Shown piece after piece: positions 6,897 through 18,389 of a DNA stretch of 24,812 nt; within the stretch, counting starts at the first letter, position 1, and every line of letters starts with the position of its first letter. Below the pieces are notes generated by a model that was not told where the DNA came from, did not search any database, and saw nothing but the letters and a program-made list of their open reading frames with translations. Both the position numbers and the translations under genes were made by a program. Source of the stretch: an uncultured Nitrososphaerota archaeon (GTDB lineage: Archaea > Korarchaeota > Korarchaeia > Korarchaeales > Korarchaeaceae). Location of the stretch: NCBI GenBank assembly GCA_964480775.1, contig CAYZRF010000026.1, positions 1 through 24,812 on the forward strand, in the 5' to 3' direction.

Positions 6897-7892
6897 TTAG
6901 CTTATTAGAGATGAGAGTTCCTTTCCGTATGCAAATAAGCCAGGCAAGCCACCGCTGTGTATGAAAAGTATGTTCTCATTCGTGTCAAAAAAGCCATTTT
7001 TTATTAGCTCTATGGTTCCCCCCATGGCTTTTGCCGTGTACACAGGGTCTAACATTATTCCTTCAGTTCTTGCTAAAGTTTTTATGGCTTCAACAACGTT
7101 TTTGGAAATCTTACCCTCTTCTCCAGCATAATCGTCTACTACTTTGATGTCCTCTGGGAATACTTGGATATTGGCACCTAAGAGATCCGCAATTCCTTTC
7201 GCTATCTTTAAGGATGAAGTTTTTAGGCTTTCTGCATCTGGACCCATGCTTATCCCTAGAACTTTAGAGTCCATTTTCATCAGCTTAGTTCCAAAGACCA
7301 AACCAGCCTGGGTTCCCCCCGAGCCAGCGGCGTGTACAATCCAGTCTATTTTTAGATCCCTCTCCTTTGCTTGGTTGAAGATTTCAACCATCGAGTTGAC
7401 ATAACCGATGGCTCCTATCGGAAAGGAGGCTCCCAAAGGTATTATGTAGGGTTTTTCTCCCTTTTTTCTGAGTTCGTCGGCAATTTCTTCCATTATTCCT
7501 GGGATTTCCTCCCTTTCAACTGGGAAGAACCTGACCTCTGCACCGAAGAGCCTGTCAAGAAGCAAGTTACCATTTGTTACGGAGGGTTCCCTCCCTCTTA
7601 ACACTAAAACGGCTTTCAAACCCAATTTACTTGCTACTGCGGCTGTGGATCTAGCGTGGTTTGATTGAATGCCGCCTGTTGTAATGACAACGGTTGATCC
7701 TTTATTTATGGCATCTGCCATCACAAATTCCAGTTTTCTCACCTTATTTCCTCCAAAAGCTGGTCCTGTAAGGTCATCACGCTTAATCCAGATTTTTGGA
7801 CCTTTTAAATGCTTGGATAGACGCGAAAGATGCTCTAATGGAGTTGGCAGATAGGCTAACCTTATCCTTGGTAAAGATATCTTCAAGTTCAT
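6897..7892 (-). CDS. PLP-dependent D-cysteine desulfhydrase / ACC-deaminase family protein
   Basis: LPTPLEHL...IKRDDLTG..FGGNKVRKLEF...TTGGIQSNHARSTA closely follows the DcyD/ACC-deaminase pattern, including the PLP lysine in GGNK. The ORF is open to ATG 7931. The internal ATG 7892 (MNLKISLPRIRLAYLPTPLE) gives the usual N-terminal length. Confidence 0.85.
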   Translation of the reverse strand: MNLKISLPRIRLAYLPTPLEHLSRLSKHLKGPKIWIKRDDLTGPAFGGNKVRKLEFVMADAINKGSTVVITTGGIQSNHARSTAAVASKLGLKAVLVLRGREPSVTNGNLLLDRLFGAEVRFFPVEREEIPGIMEEIADELRKKGEKPYIIPLGASFPIGAIGYVNSMVEIFNQAKERDLKIDWIVHAAGSGGTQAGLVFGTKLMKMDSKVLGISMGPDAESLKTSSLKIAKGIADLLGANIQVFPEDIKVVDDYAGEEGKISKNVVEAIKTLARTEGIMLDPVYTAKAMGGTIELIKNGFFDTNENILFIHSGGLPGLFAYGKELSSLIS

Positions 7893-8353
7893 CACGAGGC
7901 TTCCTTTTGCTGATAGCTTATTTTTTTGCACTCTTACGGATGTCTCCTAATATGTCTAACCATTCATCGAAAACTAAGATCTTTTACCTATTAGCTCACT
8001 GTAAATCTCTGTAGCTAGCTCTAGGACTTGTTTTCTGTTTCTCATCTTGCAACAAAGTTCCTTCAAGCCAAGCATTTTTGAGCGATGGGTTCTCGCTGTG
8101 GTTTGCCTGGGATCTAAGTTAACCCAGCCTAAGAACCTTTTCTTTGGAGTAAGTCAGGAGGTTAGCATAAGCAGCGCTACGATGCTTCCAAGGCTCCCGA
8201 TTACAATGGCCCCAGTTATCTCAACGACCAGTTTATCGGAAAGCGAAGGCCCCAAGAGTTTCAAAATAGAATTCCCATTGTTCACGTACTGTCCACAACT
8301 GAACAACAAGGTTATTGCTTTGATCACTTACTTAAGAAGTTGGTGAAAGATAG

Positions 8354-8653
8354 ATGGATGAGGAAGAGGGTAAGGATGTGGAGGAGTTAAGAGAAGTCCT
8401 GTCAATAGTCAGATCGGAGGTACCTGGGCTCTTAAAGGACTTGGTAGGTCCTTTAAAGGAACTTATGTCTCTTAGCATTAGTCCAGAAGAAGCAAGGGAA
8501 AGGGCAAGGGCATTGGCGGCCTTCTACAACGAACTAATTGAGCAGGGATTTCCAGCTGATCTGGCACTCGAACTTACTAGAGAAAACTTTGTGAACCCAT
8601 ATTCTCTGCTAAAAGAAGTGTTTTCTTCTAGTAGGAAGAAGGAGGAAAGGTAA
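8354..8653 (+). CDS. hypothetical small acidic all-helical protein (99 aa)
   Basis: ATG preceded by GGTGA (8341-8345). The composition is Glu/Leu-rich and typical of coding sequence. I recognise no family. Confidence 0.6.
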   Translation: MDEEEGKDVEELREVLSIVRSEVPGLLKDLVGPLKELMSLSISPEEARERARALAAFYNELIEQGFPADLALELTRENFVNPYSLLKEVFSSSRKKEER

Positions 8654-8911
8654 TTGGGGAAAATAAGGGCCCTCCTAGATATAATACTGTCAATTATGGT
8701 GCTAACCCTTGTAGGCATAGCGTTCTTACCGTACATAGGCTACATATTCCTGAAAGCAAGATGGATGAGGTGGAGGGCCCTTAGAGTAGTGAGGGCTGAA
8801 CTTAAGAAAGCTGGATTCAGCGAAGAGGTGATAAAAGAGCTGGAAAACGTGGTTATCCCTCCTGTTCCTAGATTAGGGGGCGTCTTACGTTGGTTGACCT
8901 CGAGGAAGTGA
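8654..8911 (+). CDS. hypothetical small membrane-anchored protein (one N-terminal TM helix, basic amphipathic tail)
   Basis: LLDIILSIMVLTLVGIAFLPYIGYIFL is followed by KARWMRWRALRVVRAELKK. The only start is a TTG immediately after, and in frame with, the upstream TAA. GGAGG lies about 10 nt upstream. The start is uncertain. Confidence 0.5.
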   Translation: MGKIRALLDIILSIMVLTLVGIAFLPYIGYIFLKARWMRWRALRVVRAELKKAGFSEEVIKELENVVIPPVPRLGGVLRWLTSRK

Positions 8912-9312
8912 TGAATAAACTCGACGAACTAGCGTCGAAGATAGCGAAAATAGAAGAGGAGTTAAAAACCCTTAAGAGTTCTGAGATGGAGTTGTATAGC
9001 TCCCTTCAAATCGCCAAAGCGGTTCTTGAGTCTTACTCCAGGGTACTTGGGTTTACATTAAGGGTAGAAAGGCTTGCGATGAGCTTAGAAGGAGACATTG
9101 AGAAGCACATAGTTCAGATACTAGCGAGACAACCGATGAATGTAAGTCAGCTAACCGAGGCTCTCAGAAAAGCAAGAGGAACCGCTTCCAGGAGAATAGT
9201 CGCTGCGAAGCTTAAGAAATTAGAGGCAGCTGGGGTTGTAGAGAGAGTGAGAACCAATGGAAGAGGGAAGTTTTACAGGCTTGTAGGCAAGATCAAAGAG
9301 GAATCTACGTAA
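8911..9312 (+). CDS. coiled-coil plus winged-helix (wHTH) DNA-binding protein, putative transcription regulator
   Basis: The N-terminal heptad-like stretch is MNKLDELASKIAKIEEELKTLK. The C-terminal wHTH is IVQILARQPMNVSQLTEAL...IVAAKLKKLEAAGVVERVRTNGRGKFYRL. ATG 8911 overlaps the upstream TGA as TGATG. The track start TTG 8890 is less likely. Confidence 0.7.
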   Translation: MNKLDELASKIAKIEEELKTLKSSEMELYSSLQIAKAVLESYSRVLGFTLRVERLAMSLEGDIEKHIVQILARQPMNVSQLTEALRKARGTASRRIVAAKLKKLEAAGVVERVRTNGRGKFYRLVGKIKEEST

Positions 9313-9342: not shown

Positions 9343-9446
9343 GGCTTTAAAACTCTCGAATTATTAGCCTGTAAATAGGTTCTTCTTTGATTTTCGATAG
9401 TTAGTCAAAGGTTATTAATCGCCATCCAGTGAGAAAACCCGAGATT

Positions 9447-10610
9447 ATGGGAAGAATACTCCTTGGGACATCTGGCTGGAGCTACGATGAGTGGGTTGGC
9501 CCGTTCTATGAGCAAAGGAAGTGGATGTTCGACTACTACGTTAAGGTCTTTGACACAGTAGAGGTGAATTCCACTTTTTATTCCCTTCCCCCAGAATGGA
9601 TGGTCCAGTTTTGGGCTAAAAAAGCTCCAAAAGACTTTGAGTTCTCAGCTAAAATTCCAAAGACAATAACCCATAAGAAGAAGCTTAAAAGTGCTGAGAA
9701 AGAGATGGAGACCTTTCTTGATCTAATGGAACCACTAAGGAAAGAGGGAAAATTAGGACCGTTGCTCTTTCAGCTTCCTCCAGGACTAAAGTTTTCCCCA
9801 GATCTCCTAAAGTCGCTTTTAGAAGGTCTTCCTTCCACACATAAGTTTGCAGTTGAGTTTAGAGACCCTTCTTGGCTCAACGAAGAAACTTGGAAGATAT
9901 TGGAGGAACACAACGTGGCGAATGTTGTGGTAGATGAACCCCTCTTACCCCCAGAACTCGTGGTGACCTCAGACTTCATCTACATAAGGTGGCACGGCAG
10001 GGGTTCTAGACCTTGGTACAACTACCACTACTCGAAGGAAGAGCTAAAGGAATGGGTTCCCAAGGTAAAGGAAGCGGCCTCTAAAGGAAAGGTTTACGGT
10101 TACTTCAACAACCACTTCAAGGCCTTTGCTCCTAAGAACTGCTTAGAGCTAGCCGAAATGCTTGGTTTAGAGCTTAAACCTCAGGCCGTTGAGGCAAAAA
10201 GCAAGCTAGAGAATTGGTTCAGAGAAATATCACCAGAAGAAGTTCCTCCACCAATCTCTGAGCCCAAAGGGCTTTTAGAAACTCTTTCAGTTGAAGAGCT
10301 TTTAGAAAGCTTCATGGATAGACGAAGATTCGAGAGAGCTACGAAGATACCTGAATCAAGCGTGGAATTGCTTGAAGCCAGTCCTAAATTCATCAAAGCA
10401 AGGGTTAAGGATTATAGAGTTGAGCTTGATGTTTCAAAAAAGCTTATACTACATGATTGTGCAGACTGGGGTCGAGTTTGCGTTAAAAAACAGTTTTGCA
10501 AGCACCTGGGAAGGCTTTTCATGTCTTTACCTGAAGAGCTTGCTGCAGAGATCCTAAGAAAGATTTTGCGAGAAAAAGATGAGTGGAAGTTTAGACCGTT
10601 TACAGAGTGA
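9447..10610 (+). CDS. DUF72 (YecE-like TIM-barrel) protein fused to a C-terminal SWIM-like zinc-finger domain
   Basis: The N-terminal ILLGTSGWSYDEWVGPFY, VEVNSTFY, LFQLPP and IRWHG blocks are DUF72 hallmarks. The C-terminus is YRVELDVSKKLILHDCADWGRVCVKKQFCKHLGRLF. The ORF is open from GTG 9429, but ATG 9447 fits the family N-terminus. Confidence 0.8.
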   Translation: MGRILLGTSGWSYDEWVGPFYEQRKWMFDYYVKVFDTVEVNSTFYSLPPEWMVQFWAKKAPKDFEFSAKIPKTITHKKKLKSAEKEMETFLDLMEPLRKEGKLGPLLFQLPPGLKFSPDLLKSLLEGLPSTHKFAVEFRDPSWLNEETWKILEEHNVANVVVDEPLLPPELVVTSDFIYIRWHGRGSRPWYNYHYSKEELKEWVPKVKEAASKGKVYGYFNNHFKAFAPKNCLELAEMLGLELKPQAVEAKSKLENWFREISPEEVPPPISEPKGLLETLSVEELLESFMDRRRFERATKIPESSVELLEASPKFIKARVKDYRVELDVSKKLILHDCADWGRVCVKKQFCKHLGRLFMSLPEELAAEILRKILREKDEWKFRPFTE

Positions 10611-10615
10611 GAGAA

Positions 10616-11635
10616 ATGGGGCTAAAGCTCTCAAAATTGGTTGTAAAGCACGAGATTAAGCTAGAGTCGCTTAGAGGTAGAATAATTGCCATAGACGCCT
10701 ATAACGCACTTTATCAGTTTTTAGCCTTAATAAGGCTTAGATATGGCGTCCCTCTAACTGATAAGCATGGTCGTGTCACTTCTCACCTAAATGGACTTCT
10801 CTTCAGAACTGTAAGATTGATTGAGGCTGGAATAAGGCCAGTTTATGTATATGACGGGAGACCTCCTCAGCTAAAAAGTAAAACGTTAGAAGAGAGGATT
10901 GAAAAGAAGAAAGAAGCGGAGGTCAAATGGAAAGAAGCTGTTGCAAGGGGAGACCTCAGAGATGCTTGGGCGAAAGCCGTTCAGACCTCGAGGGTCACTA
11001 AAAGCATGGCTGAAGATAGCAAGAAGCTACTAGAGTTTATGGGCATTCCGTGGGTTCAAGCTCCATCTGAGGGGGAGGCTCAGGCAGCTTACATGACTAA
11101 GGTTGGAGATGTTTGGGCTTCTGCTAGCCAAGATTATGATTCTCTCCTCTTTGGTTCCTTAAGGCTCGTGAGAAATCTAACGATAACAGGCAAGAAGTTT
11201 CTCAGAAAAACGCCAAGATATTACAGGCTAAAGCCGGAACTCATAAAACTTAATGAGACATTAAAGGAACTTGATCTGACACAAGAACAGTTAGTGGACA
11301 TGTGCCTCCTTATGGGGACGGACTACAACGAGGGAATCAAAGGAATTGGCCCGATTAAGGCCTACAAGCTCATAAAGAAGTATGGAACCCTGGAAAAGGT
11401 GTTAGAAGGGGAAGATATATCTATTGATGCTGATATAGACGCTATCAGGAACATTTTCCTAAATCCTCCTGCTACTGCTGATTACGAGCTTAGATGGGAA
11501 GATGTCGATGAAGATGGCCTTATCGAGTTCTTGGTTGAAGAGAGAGGATTTCAGAGAGAAAGAGTTAGAAAAGCCATAGAAAGGCTAAGAAAAGCTATAA
11601 TCAAAGGGAAACAGTCTACATTAGAGTTCTATTAA
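10616..11635 (+). CDS. fen: flap endonuclease 1 (FEN-1)
   Basis: MGLKLSKL...AIDAYNALYQFL...GRVTSHLNGLLFRT...PVYVYDG...IPWVQAPSEGEAQAAYM...SASQDYDSLLFG...LMGTDYNEGIKGIGPIKA...GKQSTLEFY shows near-complete XPG-N, XPG-I and H3TH motifs and a C-terminal PIP-like tail. The track start GTG 10607 overlaps the upstream stop. Confidence 0.95.
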   Translation: MGLKLSKLVVKHEIKLESLRGRIIAIDAYNALYQFLALIRLRYGVPLTDKHGRVTSHLNGLLFRTVRLIEAGIRPVYVYDGRPPQLKSKTLEERIEKKKEAEVKWKEAVARGDLRDAWAKAVQTSRVTKSMAEDSKKLLEFMGIPWVQAPSEGEAQAAYMTKVGDVWASASQDYDSLLFGSLRLVRNLTITGKKFLRKTPRYYRLKPELIKLNETLKELDLTQEQLVDMCLLMGTDYNEGIKGIGPIKAYKLIKKYGTLEKVLEGEDISIDADIDAIRNIFLNPPATADYELRWEDVDEDGLIEFLVEERGFQRERVRKAIERLRKAIIKGKQSTLEFY

Positions 11636-11681
11636 CATTTTGGATAATCCAACAAGGTGATGGAGATAAAGGCAATATCAA

Positions 11682-11690
11682 ATATTTATA
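11682..11690 (+). promoter_or_regulatory. TATA-like box for the ABC transporter operon
   Basis: atatttata is centred about 26 bp upstream of ATG 11712. This would fit a leaderless transcript starting at that ATG. Confidence 0.4.
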
Positions 11691-11711
11691 CCTTTAGTTA
11701 CTGCTCAATAA

Positions 11712-12500
11712 ATGCAAATAGTCGCAGTTATTAAGTCCCAAAAGACGAAAGGTGTGGGTCCCATGGCATCAGTACAGGCAGTATTTGTTGATAGATTGAC
11801 AAAGAGATATGGGAAGATAAGGGCTTTAAGGGAGCTCTCCTTTAGAATAGAAAAAGGCGAAATATACGGATTGATAGGGCCAAACGGCGCTGGAAAGACC
11901 ACTACCTTAAGAATTTTGGCGACTCTCATACAGCCAGACTCCGGAGATGCGAAGGTTTTCGGATATGACGTGGTCAATGATGCTCAGAAAGTTAGAACAA
12001 TAATAAGCTATCTTCCTGAGGAGGCTGGAGCTTACAGAAACCTATCTGGTCTTGAATATCTCAAATTTATGGCTTCATTCTATGCAGAAAACGAATTCAA
12101 GCTTCACGAGATGGTTGAGGAGGGCGTTAGCATATCAGGGCTAGGAGAGAGAATAAAGGACAGGGTGAAGACTTACAGCCAAGGAATGAAAAGAAGATTG
12201 GCCCTAGCAAGAACTCTTATGGTTCAGCCAAAGCTTGCTATTTTGGACGAGCCTACAAGTGGATTAGACGTGATTCATGCCCATCACGTAAGAAGCGTCA
12301 TTAGGAAGTACGTGGAAGAAAATGGTCTTACAGTTCTACTCTCTAGCCACAACATGCTGGAAGTCGAAACTTTGTGTGATCGGGTTGGTCTTTTGCATAA
12401 AGGCATGTTAGTGGAAGGAGGGCCTCCAGACGAACTAAAAAGAAGACATCGGGCAGCCAACTTGGAAGAAGTTTTCGTAGAGGTGACTGCTATTGCCTAA
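11712..12500 (+). CDS. ABC transporter ATP-binding protein (NatA/ABC-2 type)
   Basis: Walker A GPNGAGKTT, Q-loop, signature YSQGMKRRL, Walker B LAILDEPTSGLD and H-loop SSH. An alternative start, ATG 11763 (MASVQAVF), sits behind GGTG. Confidence 0.9.
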   Translation: MQIVAVIKSQKTKGVGPMASVQAVFVDRLTKRYGKIRALRELSFRIEKGEIYGLIGPNGAGKTTTLRILATLIQPDSGDAKVFGYDVVNDAQKVRTIISYLPEEAGAYRNLSGLEYLKFMASFYAENEFKLHEMVEEGVSISGLGERIKDRVKTYSQGMKRRLALARTLMVQPKLAILDEPTSGLDVIHAHHVRSVIRKYVEENGLTVLLSSHNMLEVETLCDRVGLLHKGMLVEGGPPDELKRRHRAANLEEVFVEVTAIA

Positions 12501-13779
12501 AGTGCTTGCTCCTCTCTTAAAGAAGGAAATTTTGGATCTTCTAAGAGATCCAAAGATTCTGATAGGAATGATAGTATTGCCAGCCGTACTATATCCAGTA
12601 ATGGGAGCAGCTATGAAAGCATCTATGTCAGCAGCTGGAAAGGCCGCACTACAATTACCAGTAGCAATTCTTGATTTAGATGAGAGTTATGAGTCGAAAA
12701 TCATAGTTTCAGCTTTGTCACAAAGCGGAAATGTAATTACGCTTGAAGTTGTGTCAGATGAGGCCCTAAACAAAGCCTTAGAAATGGGAGCTGGAGCTCT
12801 CGTCGTGATACCCGAGGGATTTGGGGAGAACCTTAGGGCTGGTAAACGAGCTTCCATAGAAATACGTGTTTTCTTTGAGAGTGGTGGATTTTCAACTCAA
12901 ATGTTCGCAGGAAGACTTGAAAGTGCCCTTGAGTCTGCTTCTGAGCTGATATCAGCTCATCTAATCTCGATAACCTCTGAGATAAATCCTGAGGTAGTTT
13001 TAAACCCACTGATGCTTAATTATAGCTCTGTGTTTAGAGGAAAGGTTCTGGAGGTGCCCCCACAAGTTTTAGCTGGAGCCATAATGGGTCAGATGACGAC
13101 CACTCCCATCGTTGCTATGCTCGTTCTGATGTTTGCTATGCAGATAGCAGCAACCTCTGTAGCTGTTGAGAAAGAAGAGAGAACTCTGGAGACCCTCCTC
13201 ACTCTTCCAGCAAGTAGAAGAAACATTCTTCTTGCAAAATTGGTAGGGTCTGCTGTTGTGGCAGGCCTAGGGAGTATTGGGGTAATGGCTGGGTTATGGT
13301 ATTACCTGAAGATGATGAGCGTTGCATTTGAATCCCAACCAATTGAGGGATTGGTGACAGTTTCCTCGAAGGATCTTGCTCTCTTGGCAGTTGCTCTTAT
13401 GGCGGCTAACATGCTTGCTCTTACCATAGCGATAATTTTAGCTGTATTTGCTGAAGATGTCAGGTCTGCGCAAGCTTTAGTTGGAAATCTATACATCTTG
13501 ATATTTATACCAGCGTTTATGCTCATGTTTGCAGACATAGATACCCTTCCAGTAGCTGCCAAATATGTATTGATGGCAGTTCCGTTTACCCATTTAGCCC
13601 TCGCTACGCAACACATAACCTGGGGAGAGTACGCAATGTTCGCTGTAAATGTGGTTTATTTGCTGATTTGGTCGGTTGCGTTTATGTTATTGGCAAACAG
13701 AATCTTCTCATCTGAAAAGATATTGACTGCGAGAATTAGATGGGGTTGGAAACGTAAGGGAGAAGGGGCTAGACATTAA
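12493..13779 (+). CDS. ABC-2 family permease (NatB-like) with a large extracytoplasmic loop after TM1
   Basis: KKEILDLLRDPKILIGMIVLP at the N-terminus, a soluble loop of about 150 aa, then 5 C-terminal TM helices. The start (TTG 12493 or GTG 12502) abuts or overlaps the ATPase stop. Confidence 0.85.
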   Translation: MPKVLAPLLKKEILDLLRDPKILIGMIVLPAVLYPVMGAAMKASMSAAGKAALQLPVAILDLDESYESKIIVSALSQSGNVITLEVVSDEALNKALEMGAGALVVIPEGFGENLRAGKRASIEIRVFFESGGFSTQMFAGRLESALESASELISAHLISITSEINPEVVLNPLMLNYSSVFRGKVLEVPPQVLAGAIMGQMTTTPIVAMLVLMFAMQIAATSVAVEKEERTLETLLTLPASRRNILLAKLVGSAVVAGLGSIGVMAGLWYYLKMMSVAFESQPIEGLVTVSSKDLALLAVALMAANMLALTIAIILAVFAEDVRSAQALVGNLYILIFIPAFMLMFADIDTLPVAAKYVLMAVPFTHLALATQHITWGEYAMFAVNVVYLLIWSVAFMLLANRIFSSEKILTARIRWGWKRKGEGARH

Positions 13780-16236: not shown

Positions 16237-17457
16237 TTATTCTTCGGAGGCCCATCTTGGGAACAAGGCCACTGCTAGGGTTGTAAAGGCAACAGCAGAT
16301 ATCCCAAGGTATATTGATGGTCCGATTACTTGTGAGAGACCAGCTCCTCCGAGCAACACACCGCTTAAAGCTTCTGTTGCTTTTGTAAAAGGTAGAAGTT
16401 CTGAAAAAGTCCTAAGGGCTCCTGGGAGAAACTGAACTGGGAAGTATATGCCTATGAAGAATTGCAGAAGAACTCCAATTACAGTAGCTGCTTGTCCAGC
16501 AGCTCTTGGGCTTGGAGAGATCTCAGCTATCAATAGCCCCAGACTTATTCCACTCATATCGCCCATCAGCACAAGTGGAAAGATAGCTGGATCCCAGTTC
16601 ACTTCTGGTCTAAGCACAAAAATGGTAGTCGCGATAAGCACCAGTTGGGAGAATGAAAGTGCTATCAGTGCTGAGAGAATCTTTCCGAAAAGCAAGCTCC
16701 ATGTTGACGCCGTAGAGATTCTCAGCCTCTTTAGTGTTTTATTTTCTTTTTCTTCGACCAACGTCCATGTCGAGGATACCATGCCCGAGAACAAAAAGGA
16801 GTACACAAGCATAGTTGTTACCCATTGGCCTCTGTTCTCCCAGTAGGCAGCAGTATCTGAAGTCGCTTCGGGTTTTGATATTAACGCCATTGTAACGTTT
16901 ATTGGCCTCGCAAATGCCATCATTCTCTCTGCCATCTCCTCCTTATTCATGACATATTCTTCAAAGCTCAGGTTTTCTGGCATGTATTCTAGAATTCTTT
17001 GCAAGATTCTACGCCTGAACTCCGAATTGAACTCCTCAACAAAACCAGATATGAAAGATGTGAGCGTTTGCTGAACTGTTGCGTCTCCTTCCTTCACGTA
17101 AAATTCTACGTTGCCAACAAAGCCAGAGGTCAAGTTCTCCGTGAATCCTTTGGGTATCACAAGAAGGCCGACTAAATCCTTTTCTCCAGCCTTAACGGCC
17201 CTAAATGCCTCTTCTTCGGATTCGATGGCGTGAAGAGAAACTACACTTGTCGAATTTAGAGCCTCTATTATTGCCTTGGCCATTTGTCCTTTGTCCTTGT
17301 TAACACAAGCAATGTCAAATTTAGCGCTCTCTGCACTGAATATGGTTGAAAAAAGAAGCATCATTACTATGGGAAAGGCTATCACCCAAAACAAAGTGGC
17401 TCTATCTCTTACAAATAATAGGAAATCCTTCTTAGCTATGCCCCAACAGGGTCTCAT
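16237..17457 (-). CDS. ABC-2 family permease with a large extracytoplasmic loop after TM1
   Basis: KKDFLLFVRDRATLFWVIAFPIVMMLLF, a loop of about 170 aa, then 5 TM helices. ATGA start/stop overlap with the upstream ATPase gene. Confidence 0.85.
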   Translation of the reverse strand: MRPCWGIAKKDFLLFVRDRATLFWVIAFPIVMMLLFSTIFSAESAKFDIACVNKDKGQMAKAIIEALNSTSVVSLHAIESEEEAFRAVKAGEKDLVGLLVIPKGFTENLTSGFVGNVEFYVKEGDATVQQTLTSFISGFVEEFNSEFRRRILQRILEYMPENLSFEEYVMNKEEMAERMMAFARPINVTMALISKPEATSDTAAYWENRGQWVTTMLVYSFLFSGMVSSTWTLVEEKENKTLKRLRISTASTWSLLFGKILSALIALSFSQLVLIATTIFVLRPEVNWDPAIFPLVLMGDMSGISLGLLIAEISPSPRAAGQAATVIGVLLQFFIGIYFPVQFLPGALRTFSELLPFTKATEALSGVLLGGAGLSQVIGPSIYLGISAVAFTTLAVALFPRWASEE

Positions 17458-18389
17458 CTGATCGCCTCCATCAACCTCCTTCCTGTGAGGTTGAGAAACA
17501 CGTCTTCCAGAGATGGTGATCTTATTTCGACGCTTTCTGGATCTATTCCTGCAGATTGGAGTTTTGCTATGAGATCTGGAACTAGCTCCTCAGGTTTTTC
17601 GGTTCTTATTTCCAACCATTCCAGAACCCTAGTTAGAGAGTAGTCCGATAGGATTTTCTCCGCAGTTTCTAGGTATCTCATCTTCACGTGGATTATTATC
17701 TTTGAAGATCCTCCATGCAGCCGTTTCAGCTCATCTGGCGAGCCTATGGTAACTATCTTTCCCGAGTCCATTATTGCAACCCTATCACAAAGTTCGTCTG
17801 CTTCTTCCATGTAGTGAGTGCTTAGTAGAATTGTTTTGCCATCTTTCTTCATTTTCTCTATGAACCTCCAGAACTCCCTCCTAGCATCTGGATCCAAGCC
17901 AACTGTAGGCTCATCCAACACAATTATGGGAGGATCATGCAAGAGCGATGCAGCTAGACTTGCCCTCCTCTTTTGACCTCCAGAAAGCTTTCCAGTCCTT
18001 CTTCTCAACAAATCATTTAATTCCAGCATTTCCGATAGAATTCTCAGTCTTTCCTCAAATTTCTCCTTCGAAGAGGAGTAAAGCGATGCGATAAACTCTA
18101 AGTTTTCTAGAACTGTGAGATTATCATAAAGCATCGTCTCTTGAGGGTTAAATCCTACAATTCGTCCTATTTCTTTGGATTTCTTCGCGATATCCATTCC
18201 TAGCAAGATCACTTTGCCTGAATCAGCTCTTCTCAGTCCTACTATGATCTCCATTAAAGTTGTTTTACCAGCACCATTAGGCCCAAGCAGACCAAATATT
18301 TCTCTTTCCTCAACATTAAGGCATACGCTGTCCAACGCTGTGATATCTCCATATTTTTTTGAGACTTTTTCGACGATTACGGCTTTCAT
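17454..18389 (-). CDS. ABC transporter ATP-binding protein (DrrA/ABC-2 type)
   Basis: Walker A GPNGAGKTT, signature LSGGQKRRASL, Walker B IIVLDEPTVGLD, H-loop STH, and a C-terminal extension of about 90 aa. Confidence 0.9.
   Translation of the reverse strand: MKAVIVEKVSKKYGDITALDSVCLNVEEREIFGLLGPNGAGKTTLMEIIVGLRRADSGKVILLGMDIAKKSKEIGRIVGFNPQETMLYDNLTVLENLEFIASLYSSSKEKFEERLRILSEMLELNDLLRRRTGKLSGGQKRRASLAASLLHDPPIIVLDEPTVGLDPDARREFWRFIEKMKKDGKTILLSTHYMEEADELCDRVAIMDSGKIVTIGSPDELKRLHGGSSKIIIHVKMRYLETAEKILSDYSLTRVLEWLEIRTEKPEELVPDLIAKLQSAGIDPESVEIRSPSLEDVFLNLTGRRLMEAIR

Follow-up and report, generated by a model that had tools for sequence, protein, structure and literature searches.

DUF72 (UPF0759), which includes E. 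coli YecE and T. maritima TM1631, is a large protein family with crystal structures in the PDB since 2004, for which the literature searched holds only computational guesses at function. The solved and best-known members (TM1631, 1VPQ; E. faecalis EF0366, 1VPY, 1ZTV; E. coli YecE) are single-domain proteins of ~260-290 amino acids (aa). Here we describe a DUF72 protein encoded in 24,812 nucleotides (nt) of DNA from an uncultured archaeon of the Korarchaeaceae (contig CAYZRF010000026.1, assembly GCA_964480775.1; the whole stretch is called the window hereafter). This protein has the same GxSGW, NSTFY, QxPP, RxHG, and NNH motifs as the solved and best-known members, and unlike them it adds a linker and a SWIM-like module of ~105 aa, while its gene appears to form an operon with fen, the gene for the flap endonuclease FEN-1. 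We propose, with a rough probability of 0.45 for the statement as a whole, that in this DUF72-SWIM/fen operon the barrel works on damaged DNA and leaves a flap for FEN-1 to remove. The anatomy of the locus and of the protein is very probably as given below.

Incision-first excision repair is known in two forms that resemble this arrangement, i.e., UVDE acting together with Rad2/FEN-1 in S. pombe and long-patch base excision repair (BER) initiated by endonuclease IV (Endo IV). Both pair a TIM-barrel enzyme with FEN-1, as does the window, at the level of genes. For DUF72 itself, Konc et al. (2013; PMC3828134) put forward an Endo IV-like groove of Tm1631 as its site of DNA binding. The modelling gave a DNA-sized groove and a phosphate-binding patch of Tyr/His/Arg/Glu/Arg holding sulfate or phosphate; a metal cluster is not described (PMC3828134). 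A 2025 in-silico study reported DUF72 in 119 PolB2 neighbourhoods, for example in the order SRAP-DUF72-iRadA-PPB2-PolB2, and in that article the DUF72 fold is called close to UVDE and its function is left unassigned (PMC11791011). These PolB2-iRadA-PPB2 damage-tolerance neighbourhoods share with our locus the protein family and a DNA-damage context; in contrast, the window contains no PolB2 or RadA and the partner gene is fen. The text of PMC11791011, searched for DUF72 and SWIM, mentioned neither a fusion of the SWIM-like kind nor a linkage to fen. A DNA-repair link for DUF72 has therefore been proposed already, in 2013 by Konc et al. and in 2025 from the PolB2 neighbourhoods (PMC11791011), and a sequence-only reading of the window, which held a DUF72/FEN-1 pathway to be undescribed, stands for the fen linkage and the SWIM fusion but not for the repair link as such. 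The literature on YecE, TM1631, UPF0759, yunF, and DUF72 offered in-silico function proposals and treated YecE mostly as a prophage insertion site. In the literature searched, no description appears to exist of the SWIM-like fusion and its spread, of the recurrent operon with fen, or of the paired degenerate paralogue presented below.

The locus contains the following features, all on the plus strand.

9412..9419, plus strand: A/T-rich TTATTAAT, candidate archaeal TATA box, ~31 nt upstream of ATG 9447 (read from the sequence)
9447..10610, plus strand: coding sequence of the DUF72-SWIM-like fusion, 387 aa plus stop (open reading frame list, homologues, AlphaFold2 model)
9447..10166, plus strand: DUF72 TIM-barrel core, candidate catalytic domain, aa 1-240 (Pfam, Foldseek, PDB profile)
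10167..10289, plus strand: connector, aa 241-281, with a helix at 245-260 followed by a Pro/Glu-rich low-confidence stretch
10290..10607, plus strand: divergent SWIM-like module, aa 282-387 (AlphaFold2 model of the isolated module, family-level Pfam matches)
10452..10505, plus strand: putative zinc-ligand motif H336-D-C338-A-D340...C351-K-H353 (alignments; metal binding predicted)
10608..10618, plus strand: gene junction TGA-GAGAA-ATG, i.e., DUF72-SWIM stop, 5-nt spacer, and fen start (read from the sequence)
10616..11635, plus strand: fen, archaeal flap endonuclease FEN-1, 339 aa (TIGR03674, Pfam XPG_N and XPG_I)
11636..11711, plus strand: post-fen spacer with a T4 run at 11638-11641 and A/T-rich ATATTTATAC ~26 nt before the ATG (11712) of an ABC-transporter gene

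The upstream open reading frame (ORF) may start at GTG 9429 or ATG 9447 and stops at TGA 10608-10610 on the plus strand. Because the alignment of 35 homologues begins at the Met encoded by ATG 9447, we take the protein to be 387 aa long and rejected GTG 9429 as the start codon; the length of 393 aa given in the sequence-only reading applies to the GTG start alone. If TTATTAAT is a real TATA box, it argues against the GTG 9429 start as well, and this candidate would suit a leaderless or short-leader DUF72-fen transcript. The promoter prediction tool does not cover archaeal promoters, and the call is a reading of the sequence. The downstream ORF runs on the plus strand to 11635 from ATG 10616 (339 aa) or from an alternative GTG at 10607 that overlaps the DUF72-SWIM stop codon. 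Its product was identified earlier as FEN-1, in agreement with the archaeal equivalog model TIGR03674 fen_arch (475.8 bits vs. a cut-off of 351.95) and the Pfam domains XPG_N (1.4e-18) and XPG_I (2.2e-28); its translation ends in a QSTLEFY tail, which, from general knowledge of FEN-1, we take to be of the PCNA-binding (PIP-like) type. The TGA-to-ATG distance of 5 nt and the overlapping GTG are both present as described in the sequence-only reading, and its point that the spacer has no room for a promoter is supported; the same 5 nt separate the genes in three relatives, and a homologue of 50% identity has an 11-nt gene overlap. We infer that DUF72-SWIM and fen form a two-gene operon with co-transcription and with termination-reinitiation coupling or co-translation. 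The operon likely ends after fen, with a separate promoter, for which ATATTTATAC is the candidate, serving the ABC-transporter gene.

The DUF72 assignment of the N-terminal part, made earlier on the basis of its motifs, is supported by the Pfam model DUF72 (PF01904), which matched aa 23-238 with E=5.4e-69 and 233 bits against a gathering cut-off of 25.3. GTSGWSY, NSTFY, FQLPP, and IRWHG are all present and are invariant or nearly so among 35 to 81 homologues. An AlphaFold2 model of the fusion protein, built on the 35-sequence alignment, reached a mean predicted local distance difference test (pLDDT) score of 90.4 and a predicted template modelling (pTM) score of 0.73, with residues 1-240 modelled as an eight-stranded barrel. 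When this barrel was compared with the PDB by Foldseek, only three DUF72 crystal structures resembled it closely: the best match was 1vpq (E=3e-17, template modelling (TM) score 0.82, 37% identity), together with 1vpy and 1ztv. A PDB sequence-profile search likewise returned 1vpq at E=4.6e-57. The window protein has all of the 16 polar or aromatic residues that 81/81 long-form sequences share (E39, S42, F44, Y45, K69, T75, H76, Q109, E137, R139, D163, R181, H183, N221, N222, and H223). The model places these residues at, or directly after, the C-terminal ends of its eight predicted strands, the usual position of a TIM-barrel active site. Since these residues are all kept at the strand C-termini, the window enzyme looks catalytically intact in this model.

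The barrel is joined to the C-terminal module through a connector that is variable and gapped across the homologue alignment. The linker, previously put at ~60 aa, measures ~20-25 aa (around aa 258-281, Pro/Glu-rich, pLDDT dipping to ~69) and follows the helix at aa 245-260; the C-terminal domain, previously put at ~70 aa, extends to ~105-110 aa in the AlphaFold2 model. Modelled in isolation (pLDDT 96.6), the module consists of two helices, four strands, a putative zinc knuckle, two more helices, and a last strand. The motif H336/C338/D340/C351/H353 is invariant in 35 and in 24 aligned sequences and at least 90% conserved over 149 diverse module representatives. Its conserved signature HxCxD-x10-CKH offers four potential ligands in the form HxC...CxH and does not match the canonical SWIM pattern CxCxnCxH. 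Cys345 of the window protein, not conserved among homologues, is probably the residue that was counted in the sequence-only reading. The His/Cys pair closes strand 4 and the C-K-H opens the following helix in the model; a ligand pair at a strand end and a C-x-H opening a helix is also the arrangement in SWIM.

Profile searches with the window sequence itself did not reach the SWIM family. No match to Pfam SWIM (PF04434) was obtained at E<=10 with aa 240-387 or 304-387, or at E<=1 with aa 276-387; scans of the C-terminus against Pfam, NCBIfam, and PHROGs gave one weak Snf2 N-terminal match (E=0.008), and the isolated module had no significant match in a PDB sequence-profile search or in Foldseek. 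A profile of the module collected 307 representatives from 1.84 billion proteins. All family-level matches were taken at permissive E-value limits of 0.1 and 1, without curated cut-offs. Over 149 diverse representatives, the Pfam family met most often is SWIM (26 members, with a best E-value of 4e-5), followed by DUF72 (21), DUF2240 (14), and DUF6582 (8). Among 24 close members, three match Pfam SWIM and 13 match positions 18-84 of the Snf2-helicase model NF053675 (best 8e-5), presumably the N-terminal region in which bacterial Snf2 proteins carry SWIM. The module has in common with SWIM (PF04434) and the Snf2 N-terminal region (NF053675) a strand-rich part followed by a Cys/His knuckle and a C-x-H that opens a helix, and it differs from SWIM in that its first ligand is His instead of Cys and in an extra invariant Asp. 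The SWIM-like Cys/His pattern claimed earlier thus stands at the family level (26/149), but the window sequence goes unmatched and reads HxC, not CxC. We conclude that the module is most probably a divergent SWIM-type domain, as supported transitively by its family and not by the window sequence itself. We considered and rejected a PIP box for PCNA binding at the C-terminal end of the DUF72-SWIM protein; the conserved W380-x-F382 lies in the last strand of the module.

The module is mobile. Among proteins P0121-P0270 (e.g., P0217, P0228, P0221, P0224, and P0144), its fusion partners include a PD-(D/E)XK nuclease, HNH together with an RPA OB fold, archaeal DUF2240 (14/149), and DUF6582 (8/149), and one protein of 1,689 aa carries 17 tandem copies. 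The fusion with DUF72 is widespread. More than 3,400 homologue clusters match the fusion protein, and the best 120 of these are all ~385-430 aa long with full-length coverage and 47-65% identity. The carriers are mainly Bathyarchaeia and other Thermoproteota, and the lineages include Nezhaarchaeota, Methanomethylicia, Thermofilaceae, and Methanoperedens; the homologues are annotated as DUF72 or YecE and nothing more. With >3,400 clusters and a motif nearly invariant in the 149 representatives, the fusion architecture is far beyond chance.

Next, we examined the gene neighbourhoods of 80 species-level genome loci with a full-length homologue, the majority from Bathyarchaeia. fen lies within 6 kb in 11/80 loci and is the immediate same-strand neighbour in eight, which are arranged as follows.

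L001-L003 (the clade of the window): DUF72 then fen, identical TGA-N5-ATG junction
L008: DUF72 then fen, 11-nt gene overlap, homologue 50% identical
L057: fen adjacent, 40 nt
L045: fen adjacent, 60 nt
L075: fen adjacent, 70 nt
L006: reversed order, fen then DUF72, 46-nt gap

Outside the 5-nt and overlap cases the fen gaps are 34-70 nt, on the same strand throughout. In a Pfam census of 145 directly flanking genes, FEN-1 domains top the list of families, at eight matches. Seven further relatives were examined individually: fen adjoins in three, lies 2.2 kb off in one, and was not seen in the other three.

P0002: DUF72 then fen
P0013, P0006: fen then DUF72
P0017: fen 2.2 kb upstream, next to another DUF72 gene

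A 342-aa gene upstream of the homologue in L087 was considered as fen and turned out to be something else. In a neighbour-joining tree the fen-linked loci take up a large part of one clade outside Bathyarchaeia, and the linkage recurs apart from it in the pair L045 and L075. At about one fen per ~2,000 genes, ~0.1 chance adjacencies would be expected in 80 genomes, a rough estimate by which the excess over chance is large even at 4-5 independent arrangements. The adjacency to fen seen in the window thus recurs in relatives, with fen as the commonest immediate neighbour (8/80), in both gene orders and on at least two tree branches, but in a minority of loci and in none from Bathyarchaeia.

Other DNA-metabolism genes take up neighbouring positions. 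Besides FEN-1, the census of 145 genes found UDG (5), RadA/Rad51 (3), OGG (2), Cdc6 (2), and helicases (2) as immediate neighbours. A UDG-superfamily gene (~249 aa, PF03167 E=1.3e-31) is present in nine Bathyarchaeia loci (L035, L037, L041, L052, L053, L059, L068, L077, and L007; e.g., L052:7143-7889), and in the majority its place is directly downstream of DUF72-SWIM on the same strand, which is the position of fen in the window. A family-B polymerase and RadA cluster is found in six Bathyarchaeia loci, while a seventh has RadA only; this is consistent with the PolB2 neighbourhoods published for DUF72 (PMC11791011).

Some neighbours belong to translation, and one could read them as a meaningful signal that the enzyme targets RNA or tRNA for modification or repair. 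A D-aminoacyl-tRNA deacylase gene is the immediate neighbour in five loci, a threonyl-tRNA-synthetase-type gene is near in L085, L084 and L086 have gatCAB upstream of fen, and the similar pockets found by Konc et al. also included RNA-binding sites (PMC3828134). We regard an RNA substrate as very unlikely: the translation neighbours are limited to single Bathyarchaeia or Nezhaarchaeota sub-lineages and sit mostly on the opposite strand, the window has no tRNA or Rfam RNA, and the fusions of the module with DNA nucleases and with an RPA OB fold point to DNA.

In about 38/80 loci, including most Bathyarchaeia, a second and shorter DUF72 gene (~305-320 aa, Pfam DUF72 E=2.5e-31) stands immediately upstream of the DUF72-SWIM gene, in tandem or divergent orientation. 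It is absent from the window.

Loci with the short paralogue: L011, L014, L017, L018 (e.g., L018:5057-5989), L025-L027, L029-L038, L040-L042, L044, L047, L052, L053, L058, L059, L061, L067, L070, L071, L073, L077, and others
Loci with the short paralogue directly beside fen: L009:4264-5229, L088:1837-2784

The short paralogue keeps E39, E137, R139, and R181, has Phe for H183, has lost W16 and the NNH motif at 221-223, and ends in a different C-terminal tail. It may be a non-catalytic partner. A role in a defence system was ruled out for both proteins, as PADLOC defence-protein models had no match to the DUF72-SWIM protein or to the short paralogue. Further genes were seen near DUF72-SWIM homologues. 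L083 carries an intein-containing ribonucleotide reductase gene four genes upstream (L083:1-3031) and a HepT/MNT toxin-antitoxin pair directly upstream, and L085 carries an intein-containing Lhr-type helicase gene two genes upstream (L085:1-1370).

Taken together, a DNA-repair role for the DUF72-SWIM protein is plausible and in line with the published in-silico proposals, because the fen linkage recurs, because UDG, OGG, RadA, and PolB genes flank the gene elsewhere, and because the module is shared with PD-(D/E)XK and HNH nucleases; we put such a role at slightly better than even odds. In the proposed mechanism, the DUF72 barrel would act on DNA at or beside a lesion or an abnormal end, likeliest by cutting or processing a phosphodiester, while being held on DNA, or on a repair partner, by the SWIM-like module. 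The 5' flap displaced in strand-displacement synthesis would afterwards be trimmed by FEN-1. The whole would amount to incision-first ("alternative excision") repair similar to that of UVDE and Rad2(FEN-1) or to long-patch BER after Endo IV. DNA as the substrate, nuclease chemistry, and the hand-off to FEN-1 are what we infer from this context, and the incision chemistry in particular is doubtful. Equally speculative is the broader form of the proposal, that DUF72 constitutes an unrecognised class of TIM-barrel DNA-damage or apurinic/apyrimidinic (AP)-site endonucleases, armed with SWIM in many archaea, that would start FEN-1-dependent incision-first repair with the degenerate paralogue of most Bathyarchaeia as a non-catalytic partner. 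With respect to the sequence-only reading as a whole, what it observed is confirmed with minor corrections, while its interpretation is partly supported, for the domain identities and the recurrence of fen but not for a relation to Endo IV.

Several observations weigh against the proposed mechanism. In an hhalign comparison, the 35-sequence profile aligned to E. coli Nfo with a probability of 0.07% over 19 columns outside the barrel core, by which membership in the Endo IV family was ruled out at the sequence level. Structural matches from Foldseek other than DUF72 are generic TIM barrels with TM scores of ~0.4-0.5, including sugar epimerases, and comparable to those with the xylose-isomerase-like barrels of Endo IV type (T. 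maritima Endo IV 4hno ranked 46, E=3.7e-3, TM 0.48; 3ngf, "AP endonuclease family 2", E=5e-4, TM 0.52). UVDE is absent among the best 50 Foldseek PDB matches. The nine-residue tri-metal ligand set of Endo IV is not evident in DUF72-SWIM, no superposition having been made, and Konc et al. themselves expect Tm1631 to work differently from Endo IV (PMC3828134). An experimental function for any DUF72 protein was not found in the literature searched. The sequence-only reading had given the Endo IV-like Thermotoga proposal correctly (PMC3828134); the family has no profile similarity to Endo IV at 0.07%, and its fold matches many other barrels equally well.

These results leave space for a DNA role beside FEN-1 that does not involve incision. 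The DUF72 barrel could be a phosphatase or diesterase that cleans blocked 3' or 5' ends, a glycosylase or lyase, or a sensor of lesions or structures; as a sensor, it would use the SWIM-like module to recruit FEN-1, PCNA, or RadA paralogues in Okazaki maturation or damage tolerance. SWIM domains of Shu2/SWS1 bind Rad51 paralogues, and RadA-like genes flank DUF72-SWIM in several loci. Such a role rests on the same gene-context evidence as the proposed mechanism, and it would agree with the lack of an Endo IV-type relationship in hhalign and with a phosphate-binding patch that lacks a metal cluster (PMC3828134). We nevertheless consider it rather improbable. The barrel mouth has 16 invariant residues, which favour catalysis over a pure scaffold.

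The remaining points against the repair mechanism concern gene context. The fen linkage is absent from ~85% of the 80 loci, including every Bathyarchaeia locus, and in the main clade inherited synteny could account for part of it; fen may also have an internal promoter within the DUF72 gene. Many neighbours have no connection to DNA (rhodanese, cupin, D-aminoacyl-tRNA deacylase, and FGGY kinase), and these are confined to particular lineages. The SWIM-like module is also found on proteins that are not nucleases, i.e., with a ComF-like phosphoribosyltransferase (PRTase), HEAT repeats, and a Zn-phospholipase-C-like domain. The DUF72 barrel might accordingly be a metabolic or small-molecule enzyme, acting for instance on a phosphorylated sugar or nucleotide in the manner of other xylose-isomerase-like or TIM barrels, with its position next to fen inherited and not functionally coupled, and with the SWIM-like module serving as a protein-protein or regulatory appendage. 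Such an enzyme would fit the scarcity of fen and the fusions to PRTase and HEAT repeats, as well as the frequent rhodanese, cupin, FGGY kinase, and aminotransferase neighbours, and one tree clade does hold most of the fen-linked loci; sugar epimerases, O-GlcNAcase, BHMT, and RuBisCO-like barrels score in Foldseek like Endo IV. On the other side, the fen linkage holds where the gene order is inverted and is seen again in a second clade, UDG, OGG, RadA, PolB, Cdc6, and helicase genes flank the gene in other lineages, the same module sits on PD-(D/E)XK and HNH nucleases, and DUF72 is independently enriched near PolB2 operons in the 2025 study (PMC11791011). We therefore hold a metabolic function to be unlikely, though a serious contender, and keep the processing of damaged DNA ahead of FEN-1 as the proposed role.

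The rest of the window contributed a few observations of its own. Just upstream of the DUF72-SWIM gene are three small ORFs, tightly packed or overlapping, whose conservation alongside the DUF72-fen pair is limited to L001 and L002. The 85-aa product has a hydrophobic N-terminal stretch, and the 140-aa product combines a coiled coil with an ArsR/Csa3-like winged helix (Pfam HTH_5 E=1.6e-6, PADLOC Csa3 5e-7) and could be a local regulator. Two ABC-2-type transporter pairs, each an ATPase plus a permease, lie downstream; the first directly follows fen and is syntenic in L001, L002, and L082, as well as in L009, where it adjoins the DUF72-SWIM gene. The 3' end of fen contains an imperfect tandem duplication that encodes a repeated RVRKAIERLRKAI helix and is probably trivial.

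6897-7931, minus strand: D-cysteine desulfhydrase / 1-aminocyclopropane-1-carboxylate (ACC) deaminase homologue (PDB 7ysk, E=3.8e-80), unrelated to DUF72-fen
8354-9312, plus strand: three small ORFs of 99, 85, and 140 aa
11557-11599: 21-nt duplication in fen, two copies, 81% match
11712-13779, plus strand: first ABC-2-type transporter pair
16237-18389, minus strand: second ABC-2-type transporter pair

Scans of the window for tRNA, Rfam RNA, and tandem repeats gave nothing relevant, and PDB look-ups of four other window proteins revealed no further repair genes.

Three lines of context, i.e., the tight same-strand pairs with fen, the UDG, OGG, RadA, and PolB2 neighbours, and the module held in common with PD-(D/E)XK and HNH nucleases, turn a vague guess at a repair function into one that can be tested. 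If the proposal is true, the DUF72-SWIM proteins would be a new enzyme class in archaeal excision repair and could help to explain how base damage is processed in lineages such as Bathyarchaeia. Should the endonuclease form of the proposal be true, a function would be assigned to a protein family of both bacteria and archaea.

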